This document shows positions 8,267-11,469 of a DNA stretch of 64,000 nt, piece after piece. Origin of the DNA: Candidatus Omnitrophota bacterium (GTDB taxonomy: Bacteria; Omnitrophota; Gorgyraeia; 2-02-FULL-51-18); NCBI GenBank assembly GCA_016206805.1, contig JACQQX010000016.1, positions 13,256-77,255 on the forward strand, in the 5' to 3' direction. Within the stretch, counting starts at the first letter, position 1; every line of letters begins with the position of its first letter. Below the pieces are notes generated by a model. That model saw only the letters and a program-made list of their open reading frames with translations. It did no database searches and was not told the DNA's origin. The position numbers and the translations under genes are program-made.

Positions 8267-9185
8267 AAATTTGACGATCAGGCCGGCTTGTCAATAAACC
8301 GGATTTCTTTAAACCCTGCCGGCGCCGGTACACGCGAGGCAAATGCGGCAGTGCCTGCCAAAACCCCAGAAACAATTCCGGCTTTCCGCTGAAAAGGGAA
8401 TAAGCCAGTCTAAACGGCAGCCAGAAAAAAAACCTTAAAAAAGAGTCCCTGTCCCCCAGGTTCTTCCACATGAATAAAAATGTATTCCGCGCGTTGATCA
8501 CTAGCGTCCGATGGACCCCAAAAGCGCGATGAAAGCTGGTTCCCCCCTCATGCCACGCGCGGCTGGCCGGCTCATAAAGACAAACCCAGCCTTTTTTCTG
8601 GGCGCGAAAACAAATATCGGCATCCTCCAGCCGGCCCGGAAGATAAAGATCGTCATAGCCGCCCAACTCCAGAAACTTTTTCCGGTCAAAAGCCCCAAAC
8701 CCTCCCTGGAATGTGAGCCCGGGACTGTCTTTTTCTTTTTCATACCCCGGATATAACGCATACGCCCAAAAAATACCAAAACGCAGCCGGCCACGGGTTT
8801 TATTTCCTTCGTAATCGCCGGTTTTCAAGGAAAGGCATTGCGGTGTCACAAAAAAGACATCTTTCGAGTTTAAAAACGGCTGGACCAGCGGATCGACAAA
8901 ACCCGCATCGACACGGATGTCGTTATTCATCAAAATGAGAATCTCGTCGGGGAGACCCGTGGCGGCTTCATTGTAGGCGCAAAGCACACGGTTTTGCGCC
9001 ATCGGCATCCATCCCACCGAATTAAAACCGGCGACCACCGACTGACTGGCGTCGGTACTGGCATTGTCCACTACGCTGACGCGGCAATCATGCCGGGAAT
9101 TTTTAACAGCCTGGCAATAAGACGGCAGATACTTTCTCAACAGCTCCTCGCCGTTAAAATTCAATATCAGAATATGGACTTTCAC
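8253..9185 (-). CDS. Glycosyltransferase family 2
   Basis: KVHILILNFNGEELL...VVDNASTDAS...NNDIRV motifs of GT2 (GT-A fold). Confidence 0.7.
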   Translation of the reverse strand: MKVHILILNFNGEELLRKYLPSYCQAVKNSRHDCRVSVVDNASTDASQSVVAGFNSVGWMPMAQNRVLCAYNEAATGLPDEILILMNNDIRVDAGFVDPLVQPFLNSKDVFFVTPQCLSLKTGDYEGNKTRGRLRFGIFWAYALYPGYEKEKDSPGLTFQGGFGAFDRKKFLELGGYDDLYLPGRLEDADICFRAQKKGWVCLYEPASRAWHEGGTSFHRAFGVHRTLVINARNTFLFMWKNLGDRDSFLRFFFWLPFRLAYSLFSGKPELFLGFWQALPHLPRVYRRRQGLKKSGLLTSRPDRQIFGVV

Positions 9186-9937
9186 GGACGAACCTCAGGG
9201 TAAAACCGGTCGATTTTTTGAGTGACCACCGCGTGAGCGATAATGAGAATCCATACCGCCGTTGAAGAAGCCGCGTAATAAATCAATAGGGGCTCCAATA
9301 GTCTTTCCTGAAATAAAAAAATGCCTAATGTCAAAACCGGCAGAAAAACGGGAAACGTCACAGTTTCATGCCAGATGGAAAAAAACTTTTTTAAAAAAGG
9401 CCGTGAAGCGGCCTTATTCTCCTGCGATTTTTGCCCATAGGTATCCGGTGCTGTGATCCGTATCCTTCCCTGACGCACGCGCTGCAATATCACCATGGAT
9501 TCGCAAAAAGGAATTACCGAAAGCATCAGCGACCCATAAAAAGCCGTAAAACCCGCCGCCACCCACCCCAAACCCACTCCCAGCCCTAAAAAAGTAAATG
9601 GTGGGACAATGGCATTGGCTATCGTGTCAAAAAAAAGTCCGCTGGCGCAGGTAATGCCTTGAGCCCGGGCCACTTCGCCGTCCACATGATCCAGCAAATA
9701 CCAGCCGTTCACAAAAATAATCCCCAAAAACCATTGCCCTTGGGACAAAAACCATGCCCCCGCTAGACCGGAAACGATTGAGGCAAAGTTCACCCAAAAC
9801 GGCGAAACTGAAAACGGGACCAGAGTGGCCGTGATGTAAATAGAAATGCGCCGCATCACATGACGCCCATAAAAAGAATCCTTATTCCGTCGGGGTCCTT
9901 GCAGCTTTTCTCTCGAGAGTGCGGCCTGCTTCAGCAC
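9182..9937 (-). CDS. CDP-alcohol phosphatidyltransferase family membrane protein
   Basis: DHVDGEVARAQGITCASGLFFDTIAN matches the CDP-OH P-transferase signature D-G-x2-A-R-x7-8-G-x3-D-x3-D; multiple hydrophobic helices. Alternative start M28 (9856). Confidence 0.6.
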   Translation of the reverse strand: MLKQAALSREKLQGPRRNKDSFYGRHVMRRISIYITATLVPFSVSPFWVNFASIVSGLAGAWFLSQGQWFLGIIFVNGWYLLDHVDGEVARAQGITCASGLFFDTIANAIVPPFTFLGLGVGLGWVAAGFTAFYGSLMLSVIPFCESMVILQRVRQGRIRITAPDTYGQKSQENKAASRPFLKKFFSIWHETVTFPVFLPVLTLGIFLFQERLLEPLLIYYAASSTAVWILIIAHAVVTQKIDRFYPEVRP

Positions 9938-11469
9938 GAATCATTCTCCTTCATCTTTGAACAAACAAAACGATAAAACGCTTTGATAGATTCGCCGGCC
10001 GTTTGGCTGCCGGTTTTTATCACAAAATCAGGTTTCTGTGGCGGCTCATAAGGGCTTGCCGGCGAAAAACCGATAAGATCCGGCAATTCATTCCGCTTGG
10101 CCTTGGCATACAATCCTTTCACGTCGCGGCCCATCACGCATTCCAGATTGGCGTCAAAAAAGACCTCATAAAACGAGCCCGGTAAAAGCTCCCGGGCCGC
10201 TTGCCGCGAAACCCGGTAAGGCGAAATGATGGGGACCAGAATAACATCGAACTCCGCGCGCCTGGACGCGCAAAGTGAAGCGATGCGTTCATTGTTTTCC
10301 AGAATTTCTTCCCGGGCAAAGCCCAGATCCTTATGAAAATACTTTCTAATCTCATCTCCGTCCAGCACCAACACGGAACGGCCGCTTTTCTCTAGCAGAG
10401 CCTGGATGCCGGCGGCCACGGTTGTTTTACCCGAACCCGAAAGACCGGTAAACCAAAAAACAGGGGCGTGCCGGTAAATGCGTGAAAAATCAAAACCTTT
10501 TTCAAACTCGCGGATCAGCCTCACCATCATCTCCGCGCATCCGACCGGATCTTTTCCGATGGCCGTTTCCGCGGCCAGCACCAGTCCATCCGCGCCATCA
10601 ATCAAAGTATTGATGACGTCATTGACCTCGGCCCGCGTGGGGCCGGGAGACACCGTCATGGATTCCAGGAGATTGGTGGCCACATAAACTTTTTTCCGGG
10701 CTTTTTTGGCCTGGCGGATAATGTATTTTTGAAGCCAAGGGATCCGCTCGATAGGCTCTTCGCGCGACAAATCCCCACGGTCAATCAAAAGCGCGTCGGC
10801 CTTGGCGGAGATGTCATCCAAATGCACCAATCCATTGCGGCATTCTATCTTGGCGATCACAAAAGTATCGGGATCGCAATGCTTTCGGACTTCATCCACA
10901 TCGGAGGCGTGATTGGCAAAAGAAAGCGCCACATGACGCACGCCCATTTTCCGCCCGATCGCTAGCGCTTGAAGGTCCTTCGGCGTCATCACCGGCAGGT
11001 CAATCGGCCGCTCCACCGTCACGGCTTTATTCCGCCCGATTTTGCCGCCGTTGATCACTTTTAAAATCAGCTTGCCGCCTTCGCGCCTCACCACCTGAAC
11101 CAGCACGGCATTAAAATCAATGCTGATCCTGTCTCCCGCTCTCAACTGCGGGCCAATGCCCTCCGGATAAAAATTAAACTGACGGGCATCTCCCGGCACC
11201 GGTTCTTCGGGAATAGTCACGAGACTGTCTTTTTCTAATACCACTTCCGCCGCGGCAAAATTTCCAGTACGGATCTGGGCGCCTTCGGTGTCCAGACAAA
11301 TAGGCTTGGAGGTATGGCTTCGGATCTGCCGGATCACTTTTTCAACATCCTCGGCTTTAGTATGCGATAAATTGATGCGAAAGAGCCCGACGCCCAACTC
11401 ATCCAAACGCCGGATGACCTCCGGACCCATCGAAGAAGGGCCTAGCGTGCAAAGAATTTCTTTATTCAT
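9931..11469 (-). CDS. Fusion protein: pyruvate-kinase-like barrel domain + adenylyl-sulfate (APS) kinase-like P-loop domain
   Basis: N-terminal half is PK-like ([12 protein letters not shown]...LFRINLSHT...[13 protein letters not shown]...[38 protein letters not shown]). C-terminal half is CysC-like ([13 protein letters not shown]...LDGDEIR...[13 protein letters not shown]...[23 protein letters not shown]). The start is set at MNKEIL, forming an ATGA-type overlap with the upstream flippase; the ORF could extend to 11580. Confidence 0.7.
   Translation of the reverse strand: [512 protein letters not shown]

Follow-up and report, generated by a model that had tools for sequence, protein, structure and literature searches.

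The DNA stretch analyzed here (the window: 64,000 nucleotides, positions 13,256 to 77,255 of contig JACQQX010000016.1, assembly GCA_016206805.1) belongs to a Candidatus Omnitrophota bacterium and includes, on its minus strand, a gene (9931..11469) whose 512-amino acid product joins a short pyruvate kinase (PK) to a kinase (APSK) of adenosine 5′-phosphosulfate (APS). Judging from sequence comparisons, the protein is most likely a multi-domain sulfate-activating enzyme with a new partner domain, i.e., an enzyme for the synthesis of 3′-phosphoadenosine 5′-phosphosulfate (PAPS) with a built-in ATP regenerator. The fusion appears to be one form of a widespread link between short PKs and PAPS synthesis, which we have not found described, and this wider link to sulfation is in our opinion more interesting than the single gene in the window. 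The reading that we cautiously favor is that the fusion is part of a PAPS-supplying module within a surface-glycan operon, where the PK half would recycle ADP at the expense of phosphoenolpyruvate (PEP), APS would come from elsewhere, and a nearby protein with a sulfotransferase fold would sulfate the glycan.

The gene lies within an open reading frame (ORF) that spans 9931..11580 on the minus strand and would code for 549 amino acids if counted from its first ATG, with both domains inside. The start was placed at the ATG at 11469..11467, which shares the tetranucleotide ATGA with the TGA stop codon of the upstream Wzx flippase gene; homologs begin at the same MN(K/R)EIL sequence as the 512-amino acid protein. 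The deposited protein MBI4432064.1, from a Candidatus Omnitrophica metagenome-assembled genome (MAG) and labeled "adenylyl-sulfate kinase", is identical to it, and the residue numbers used here for the fusion (R32, K208, etc.) are one above the numbering of that entry. A preliminary description of this DNA, made from the sequence alone, had proposed that a single gene joins PK and APSK domains. The comparison with domain profiles confirmed it, since both halves of the 512-amino acid ORF matched their families (Pfam PK, PF00224, E 3.2e-64; APS_kinase, PF01583, E 8.5e-41), and every peptide quoted in that description was found in the ORF.

The possibility that an assembly or frameshift artifact joined two genes was ruled out by independent assemblies, by orthologs with the same junction, and by purifying selection. 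Two independent Logan assemblies (SRR12113385 and SRR12113383) carry the same fusion gene. A search for the same architecture found the PK–APSK arrangement, with its short junction, in proteins P0002 (71% identity, the ortholog at locus L001), P0003 (57%), P0004 (57%), and P0020 (44%), and an exhaustive search added one further representative, P0196 (50%). Comparison of the fusion with P0002 produced pN 0.19 and pS 0.70 (saturated), which corresponds to a ratio of nonsynonymous to synonymous substitution (dN/dS) of about 0.1 in each half; the value for the PK half was about 0.09. Both halves are thus under purifying selection. Other proteins of about 500 amino acids with a C-terminal APSK domain were considered as additional PK–APSK fusions, but they were mostly CysN–CysC or ATP sulfurylase (ATPS)–APSK fragments and only P0196 qualified. 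The exhaustive search also turned up two other unusual fusions, an APSK–methyltransferase (P0142, 399 amino acids) and an APSK–PHP-domain phosphoesterase (P0167, 500 amino acids).

The PK half (10480..11469, minus strand, approximately amino acids 1–330) comprises the A barrel and the B cap. The match to PF00224 covers profile positions 4–325 of 328, and comparison with the pyruvate kinases in the Protein Data Bank (PDB) gave an E value of 8e-57. The PK match stops at about amino acid 330, the APSK domain begins directly after, and no match to the PK_C domain was found in the fusion. The score against the pyruvate kinase equivalog TIGR01064 was below the cut-off (267.9 versus 306.4 bits). With the C domain missing and a score short of the equivalog cut-off, the fusion should be considered a PK-family protein and not a canonical pyruvate kinase. 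Residues R32, N34, S36, D61, T62, R68, K149, K208, E210, D234, T266, and E302 align with those of E. coli PykF. In an alignment of 21 members of the subfamily, which are 46–76% identical overall, this catalytic set was invariant except at two positions, namely T62, where Thr or Ser occurs, and K149 of the B domain, which at least 90% of the members keep. The subfamily has motifs of its own, namely LD[TS]EGAQ[IV]R, DRGDLSRxxPIE, LVLAAETA, and one 8-residue motif.

The APSK half (9934..10470, minus strand, approximately amino acids 334–512) scored above the cut-off of the NCBIfam apsK model TIGR00455, of the equivalog_domain type (154.3 versus 138.7 bits), and matched the APS kinases in the PDB with an E value of 1.5e-30. 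A P-loop of the GxxGxGK[ST] type, the LDGD and ISPY motifs, and a KGLYAKA lid are present. In the structures of human PAPSS1, residues R92, F101, R106, and N109 contact APS, with R106 touching the phosphosulfate; in the alignment made here the equivalents of R92, F101, and N109 are conserved and the position of R106 is occupied by Ile. By score and motifs the APSK half is assigned to the APS kinase family, with one atypical substrate-contact residue. Neither a PUA_2 nor an ATP sulfurylase domain was found in the fusion protein, which, lacking the sulfurylase part, does not qualify as a bifunctional PAPS synthase. A 500-amino acid "adenylyl-sulfate kinase" of known structure (PDB 23vk) was considered as a possible solved PK–APSK protein and discarded, as it is an Entamoeba enzyme with a sulfurylase-like domain.

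The next-best database matches of the fusion, after the PK–APSK proteins, were approximately 100 proteins of about 720 amino acids with the architecture PK, PUA_2, and ATP sulfurylase (58–67% identity in the PK part). They come from Omnitrophica, Alpha-, Beta-, and Gammaproteobacteria, Bacteroidota, and Verrucomicrobia; the Omnitrophica representatives belong, by accession number, to MAGs other than that of the fusion. The matches also included single examples of a PK–Sulfotransfer_3 and a PK–CBS protein. In the PK–ATPS proteins encoded at loci L004 and L091 the PK part shares 66–67% identity with the PK half of the fusion, and the APSK half of the latter is 58–64% identical to the stand-alone APSKs that follow these genes. 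The ATPS domains fused to short PKs (L091 8283-9437; P0005–P0120) compare well with solved ATP sulfurylases, such as those of Methanothermococcus (E 2e-76) and Thermus (E 4e-72).

A genome scan, with one genome per species, identified 26 loci with close members of the short-PK subfamily (40–65% identity) and two with distant or partial ones (L034 and L039); the other loci in the range L032–L085 were housekeeping PKs (33–37% identity, PTRAEVND pattern) and were left out of the analysis. Architectures were then scored with local domain profiles in 31 loci. The PK–ATPS arrangement was found in 13 of them, a PK–ATPS–APSK triple fusion in one (L031), and PK–APSK also in one (L001), with more examples of the latter coming from the protein searches. 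In at least seven loci (L018, L019, L021, L022, L026, L034, and L039) an APSK gene is located directly after a stand-alone short PK gene, and in L004, L008, L009, and L010 an APSK gene follows or adjoins PK–ATPS. Stand-alone short PKs with neither ATPS nor APSK genes adjacent occur in Terriglobales (L012–L015), Actinomycetes (L017 and L025), and Thermoplasmata archaea (L020, L024, and L027–L030).

The commonest Pfam families among 131 neighbor proteins encoded within 4.5 kb of the short PKs were Sulfotransfer_3 (17) and Sulfotransfer_1 (14). Clustering of the neighbors by BLAST missed divergent sulfotransferases; the Pfam count and an iterated local profile were used instead, and with the latter about 20 of the 31 loci were seen to have a sulfotransferase-like gene no more than 10 kb away. 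One to four such genes were detected in each of the Terriglobales loci, where PK is alone, and the stand-alone short PK of Terriglobales and of L017 sits among one to five sulfotransferase genes. In L095 a Sulfotransfer_2 gene is located directly after the PK–APSK gene that codes for P0004, and in L006 a gene for a CysH-type reductase follows PK–ATPS. In the locus of the cultivable Methyloversatilis discipulorum (GCA_000385375.1, L002 10001-15455), PK–ATPS is followed by two sulfotransferase genes that enclose those for a TauE-like permease and an HD_4 phosphohydrolase; sulfate ABC-transporter genes are located 8 kb from PK–ATPS. No APS kinase gene was found within 10 kb of PK–ATPS in this locus; either it is located elsewhere in the genome or the module works differently. 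The occurrence of independent PK–APSK fusions, triple fusions, and conserved gene pairs is strong "Rosetta-stone" evidence that the short PK and APS kinase work together. As far as can be judged from sequences and gene neighborhoods, the PK half of the fusion belongs to a distinct short-PK subfamily tied to sulfate activation in many bacterial and archaeal groups.

The origin of the fusion could be traced by comparison with locus L091 (GCA_016180585.1). The gene order in this locus is CTP_transf_3, 2-hydroxyacid dehydrogenase, HAD, a 627-amino acid protein, Wzx, a 620-amino acid protein, PK–ATPS (721 amino acids), APSK (183 amino acids), a protein similar to CDP-alcohol phosphotransferases, two family 2 glycosyltransferases (GT2), GT4, UDP-GlcNAc 2-epimerase, GT2, and a B12-radical-SAM fragment. 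BLAST comparisons showed that positions 3160..17208 of the window are gene-for-gene syntenic with L091 except for two differences: one 620-amino acid paralog is absent from the window, and a single PK–APSK gene stands for PK–ATPS plus APSK. Residues 2–333 of the fusion are 66% identical to residues 1–332 of the L091 PK–ATPS, and residues 334–503 are 64% identical to residues 2–171 of the L091 APSK. The fusion retains the start of the linker that connects PK to ATPS (ERGLDVSGAY in L091) and then passes straight into the APSK N-terminus. In a neighbor-joining tree of PK domains the short-PK subfamily was monophyletic relative to housekeeping PKs, and the clade of the window protein (with L001, P0003, and P0004) was nested among PK–ATPS proteins, beside the Omnitrophica protein P0006. 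The synteny, the piecewise match, the retained linker, and the nesting in the tree indicate that the fusion is an in-frame deletion derivative of a PK–ATPS and APSK gene pair; on this sequence evidence, the PUA_2 and ATP sulfurylase domains appear to have been deleted in frame to give the window fusion. P0020 is located elsewhere in the tree, which implies that PK–APSK arose at least twice. The preliminary description had stated that no characterized fusion of this kind was known. This part appears to stand, as literature searches aimed at PKs fused or linked to sulfate-activation enzymes found no description, and a search on ATP regeneration for PAPS synthesis found in vitro systems only; the fusion is not a one-off, however, and represents a derived form of a common PK–ATPS plus APSK module.

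A possible user of PAPS is encoded in the same cluster. The ORF at 18868..19848 (minus strand), which had been put forward as a putative sulfotransferase, scored below the threshold for Pfam Sulfotransfer_3 (E 0.0026). A leave-one-out profile of the sulfotransferases that neighbor short PKs matched it at E 1e-8 across both PAPS-binding regions. Its family consists of 29 "hypothetical" proteins, one of them encoded on the same contig as L091, and was related by hhalign to the Sulfotransfer_3 protein of L004 with a probability of 94%. An AlphaFold (AF2) model had a predicted confidence (pLDDT) of 94.8, and the top 42 matches found by Foldseek in the PDB were all sulfotransferases (TPST, CurM ST, Stf9, Stf1, SULTs, and 3-OSTs), with a best E value of 1e-6 and template modeling (TM) scores of 0.42–0.56. 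The protein has a GFSRSGKTLL loop similar to the 5′-phosphosulfate-binding (5′-PSB) loop, and K27, H134, and R159, invariant in the 29 homologs, are placed where the PAPS-binding (5′-PSB) Lys, the catalytic His, and the Arg of the 3′-phosphate-binding (3′-PB) region are expected. The sulfotransferase fold is therefore well supported, and according to the model this protein is likely the PAPS consumer of the cluster.

These results led us to propose the following mechanism. The C-terminal half of the fusion would convert APS and ATP to PAPS and ADP, and the N-terminal PK half would use PEP to turn the ADP released by the adjacent kinase back into ATP. This action would keep ADP low and relieve the inhibition of APS kinases by a dead-end enzyme·ADP·APS complex, while adding the free energy of PEP to a poorly driven sulfate-activation pathway. 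The protein encoded at 18868..19848, possibly together with other transferases, would then use PAPS to sulfate the glycan. For the full module the net reaction would be sulfate + ATP + PEP → PAPS + PPi + pyruvate, with PEP taking the energetic role that GTP plays for CysDN or that the fused pyrophosphatase plays in the trifunctional enzymes of stramenopiles. In vitro, hardly any PAPS is obtained with human PAPSS1 if ADP is not removed by PK/PEP, a failure attributed to the E·ADP·APS dead-end complex (PMC9885120). A local route for PAPS synthesis and sulfation, with the PK domain regenerating ATP, was one of the two possibilities raised in the preliminary description; the fusions and adjacency of the subfamily to ATPS, APSK, and sulfotransferase genes and the sulfotransferase fold at 18868..19848 lend it support.

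Several observations weigh against this proposal. Throughout the PK-linked APSK clade, including its ATPS-fused members, Ile or another non-basic residue occupies the position of PAPSS1 R106. Furthermore, in this clade (the window protein and those of L004, L008, L009, L019, L026, L031, L039, and L091) NN is found for EN[VI] and, with an insertion of two residues, LIG[YF]S for FTGID. In the ATPS domains linked to PK, the sequence FHTRNV stands for FQTRNV or FQTRNA (FHxRNV versus FQxRN(P/V)), where a His replaces the conserved Gln, and GRNHSG stands for GRDHAG. These active-site changes in both enzymes make an altered substrate possible, yet APS is probably the substrate because the same changes occur in proteins joining sulfurylase and kinase in one chain. 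Another difficulty lies in the fusions of the short PK with ATPS and with a sulfotransferase, two partners from which no ADP is released; the coupling may take place at the level of the pathway, in a multi-enzyme complex, or the PK half may do something else. In addition, neither ATP sulfurylase nor CysDN was found in the 64-kb window by tblastn with three ATPS domains or by Pfam scans of all ORFs of at least 150 amino acids, in agreement with the earlier remark that the window has no CysD, CysN, or Sat. With the ATPS domain deleted and no sulfurylase in the window, APS would have to be supplied by a sulfurylase whose gene lies in another part of the genome; a sulfate-activation system outside the window is required by our best model since the window has no source of APS.

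Some of these points are shared by an alternative in which the APSK half acts like Cj1415, the cytidine diphosphoramidate 3′-kinase of Campylobacter O-methyl phosphoramidate (MeOPN) biosynthesis, which is, like the fusion, an APS-kinase-family enzyme encoded in a surface-glycan cluster. The kinase would phosphorylate the 3′-OH of a CDP-activated (or otherwise nucleotide-activated) small molecule made by the cytidylyltransferase of the cluster, the CDP-alcohol-phosphotransferase-like protein would transfer the group to the glycan, and PK would supply ATP or a phosphorylated precursor. Such a pathway would agree with the tight coupling, through overlapping stop and start codons, of the kinase and CDP-alcohol-phosphotransferase-like genes in the window, L001/L092, and L091, with the conservation nearby of cytidylyltransferase, 2-hydroxyacid dehydrogenase, and HAD genes, with the Ile in place of the Arg that contacts the phosphosulfate (PAPSS1 R106), and with the fact that the window clade lost ATPS and kept the kinase. 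However, the same Ile-bearing clade is fused to ATPS (L031, P0176, and P0193) or encoded directly after it (L004, L008, L009, L091, and L093), and comparison of these ATPS domains with solved ATP sulfurylases gave an E value of 2e-76. The kinase half is above the apsK equivalog cut-off, and the genes enriched in the neighborhoods are those of sulfotransferases and not of a phosphoramidate pathway. As companion genes of the Cj1415 type, we looked for a glutamine kinase similar to pyruvate phosphate dikinase (PPDK), a phosphoglutamine cytidylyltransferase, and a gamma-glutamyl hydrolase, and the window lacks this set: no PPDK/PEP-utilizer-like glutamine kinase was found among its ORFs, and its sole GATase is paired with HisF- and WbuX-like genes. 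The second possibility raised in the preliminary description, a route through CDP conjugates or phosphoramidates, thus received little support, given that in syntenic clusters members of this APSK clade are joined to bona fide ATPS domains in one protein or encoded directly after them. We regard a Cj1415-like role as unlikely, although not negligible.

The other two alternatives concern the activity of the protein. The PK half could be a non-catalytic scaffold or regulatory domain that modulates the kinase or holds a sulfate-activation complex together with no turnover of PEP. Relic domains with a regulatory function occur commonly in enzymes of sulfate activation (bioRxiv 10.64898/2026.04.02.716029), with precedents in the inactive APSK-like domain of the Penicillium ATP sulfurylase and the sulfurylase-like domain of the Entamoeba APS kinase. 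The PK half lacks the C domain that the normal PK tetramer requires, and short PKs occur fused to ATPS, sulfotransferase, and CBS, none of which releases ADP; both features would fit such a role. On the other hand, inactive relic domains normally lose the residues for binding of PEP, metal, and nucleotide, and those checked are conserved in at least 90% of the 21 members, all but two being invariant; the dN/dS of the PK half also argues for a working enzyme, and we consider a non-catalytic role unlikely. Alternatively, the fusion could be a decaying remnant, still intact but functionless, of a module that stopped making PAPS after ATPS was lost, as the absence of an ATPS domain from both fusion and window might suggest. 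This is very unlikely: at least four diverged members of the deletion clade (the window protein, P0002, P0003, and P0004; 57–71% identity) retain their ORFs and catalytic motifs, the dN/dS is about 0.1, an independent PK–APSK fusion exists (P0020/P0196), and a sulfotransferase gene is located directly after that of P0004.

The gene downstream of the fusion (9182..9937, minus strand) starts at a GTG, overlaps the stop of the fusion gene by 7 nucleotides, and codes for a 251-amino acid membrane protein similar to CDP-alcohol phosphotransferases. It scored 25.3 bits against PF01066 (CDP-OH_P_transf, cut-off 22), and its family profile matched AF2299 at E 1.8e-20. The signature reads DxxDGxxAR-x8-GxxxDxxxN, with D83, D86, G87, A90, R91, G100, and D104 present; the D4 position, aligned with D4 of AF2299, is N108, an Asn found in the window protein and its close relatives. 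In solved CDP-alcohol phosphotransferases the D4 Asp is the proposed catalytic base, and a canonical paralog in L093 (4637-5662) keeps it. Of the earlier assignment to the CDP-alcohol phosphotransferases, the superfamily was upheld and the full D-motif was not. The family is small (20 clusters, mostly of the Omnitrophica type). Its members directly follow the APSK or PK–APSK gene, with stop and start codons overlapping, in the window, L001/L092 (L001 3752-4534), and L091 (10001-10786); the member in L093 (10001-10780) is one gene away from APSK, and that in L004 (16021-16809) is a few kb away on the opposite strand. In all contexts examined, then, a member of this family adjoins a PAPS module. 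The intervening gene in L093 (9135-10004) codes for a 289-amino acid protein with no Pfam match, and its identification as a DHH-type PAP phosphatase was dropped for lack of Pfam support. In L004 the family member is flanked (16835-18229) by an NTP_transferase gene and a DHBP-synthase homolog, which hints at a nucleotide-activated four-carbon ketol phosphate donor.

The protein encoded at 9182..9937 may be an ordinary phospho-alcohol transferase served by the nearby cytidylyltransferase, 2-hydroxyacid dehydrogenase, and HAD genes, or its coupling to PAPS synthesis may be functional. A more speculative idea, which we consider quite unlikely, is that it uses APS or PAPS as a donor and sulfates a lipid-linked glycan or a lipid at the membrane; its fold would then be new among sulfotransferases, and a PAPS synthase driven by PEP would feed it. 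APS and PAPS come to mind as donors because the nucleotide–phospho–sulfate anhydride resembles a CDP–alcohol. In a milder version, the trio of short PK, ATPS, and APSK, with His for Gln and Ile for Arg, may activate a compound different from plain sulfate.

One long operon for glycan biosynthesis makes up the minus strand of the window. Directly upstream of the fusion, and translationally coupled to it, is the gene for a Wzx-type flippase (11466..12959, minus strand; Pfam Polysacc_synt, E 4e-19), which is found in the same position relative to the PAPS module in L001, L091, and L092. The next gene (12956..14818, minus strand) codes for a 620-amino acid protein with weak similarity in its C-terminal part to TagF-like proteins (CDP-glycerol glycerophosphotransferase) and GT-B glycosyltransferases; in Omnitrophica clusters it always adjoins the Wzx and PAPS genes (window; L004 12722-14587; L091 1954-3837 and 5410-7272). 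It is followed by a block (14815..17208, minus strand), syntenic with L091, that codes for a HAD hydrolase (phosphatase), a D-2-hydroxyacid dehydrogenase, and a CTP_transf_3 cytidylyltransferase, and that possibly supplies a CMP- or CDP-activated donor for the CDP-alcohol-phosphotransferase-like protein. Including these, five genes are found in a row at 14815..18898 (a GAPDH-like dehydrogenase, an FAA-hydrolase-family protein, CTP_transf_3, D-2-hydroxyacid dehydrogenase, and HAD phosphatase), and together they look like a pathway to a CMP- or CDP-activated hydroxy- or keto-acid.

Other genes of the operon are related to the synthesis and decoration of sugars. At 19835..22615 the gene for a 400-amino acid PP-loop (SGGKDS) protein is located beside GATase and HisF-like genes, an arrangement conserved in L004 that we take to be a trio of the WbuX/WbuY/WbuZ type making acetamidino sugars. 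A nonulosonic-acid set at 23644..29223 includes a NeuB-like synthase, a PglD-like acetyltransferase, a CBS-DegT aminotransferase, a GFO/MocA oxidoreductase, a second CTP_transf_3, and a xylose-isomerase-like TIM barrel. The genes at 29567..35463, coding for an AlgX-like SGNH protein, an MBOAT acyltransferase, and an FkbH_N-domain protein, suggest O-acyl or glyceryl decoration of the glycan. Five PMT/PMT_2 (ArnT-like GT-C) ORFs and an 819-amino acid protein with no Pfam match are encoded at 36609..44632 and 54336..57469. Genes for a thiamine pyrophosphate-dependent enzyme, an acetaldehyde dehydrogenase (DmpF-like), and an HMGL/DmpG-like aldolase, located at 46646..50338 beside sugar dehydratase and aminotransferase genes, may constitute a pathway for a sugar that is either branched or extended by two carbons. 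Among the ORFs of the window, none coding for a classical initiating phosphoglycosyltransferase (Bac_transf or MraY/WecA type) was found.

Sulfate activation is thermodynamically uphill, and the known ways to drive it are GTP hydrolysis by CysDN, removal of pyrophosphate, and consumption of APS by APS kinase. If our proposal is true, a fused or operon-linked PK would be a further driver, by which PAPS synthesis is coupled to PEP and ADP is removed. The linkage, found in many bacterial phyla and in Thermoplasmata archaea beside sulfotransferase genes, would mark clusters for sulfated glycans, lipids, or metabolites that are currently annotated only as "pyruvate kinase" or "sulfate adenylyltransferase". 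For this genome, the prediction is a sulfated surface glycan in an uncultivated Omnitrophica bacterium. The fusion could also provide a compact, self-regenerating PAPS synthase for biocatalytic sulfation, where PK and PEP are already added (PMC9885120).

The closest known systems are the bifunctional and trifunctional PAPS synthases (human PAPSS1/2, Aquifex Sat/CysC, CysN–CysC, and the stramenopile ATPS–APSK–pyrophosphatase), in which, as in the fusion, APSK is joined to an enzyme of the same pathway. The pyrophosphatase of the stramenopile protein is, like the PK of PK–APSK, a helper enzyme that removes an inhibitory by-product, PPi in that case and, as proposed here, ADP in the other. The partner in those synthases is a sulfurylase, a GTPase, or a pyrophosphatase, whereas in the window protein it is a PK and there is no sulfurylase domain. 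Canonical pyruvate kinases (PykF/PykA and PKM) share with the fusion the A-domain barrel and B cap, and the catalytic, Mg2+/K+-site, and nucleotide-contact residues are kept. They differ in having a C-terminal allosteric and tetramerization domain, in lacking the subfamily-specific motifs, and in their glycolytic context, as opposed to the sulfation clusters where the short PKs are set. Cj1415 was compared by gene context: the MeOPN companion genes are absent from the window, and the window clade is tied to ATPS and sulfotransferases. The CDP-alcohol phosphotransferases (AF2299, IPCT-DIPPS, and PIP synthase) share with the protein encoded at 9182..9937 the fold-defining signature region and differ from it and its close relatives in having Asp at D4, where these have Asn. 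The regeneration of ATP by PK and PEP used for PAPS synthesis in vitro (PMC9885120) resembles our proposal in that the ADP from APS kinase is recycled and the dead-end complex avoided; that system is a laboratory mix of separate enzymes, whereas here the coupling is apparently encoded in the genes, as a fusion or as an operon.

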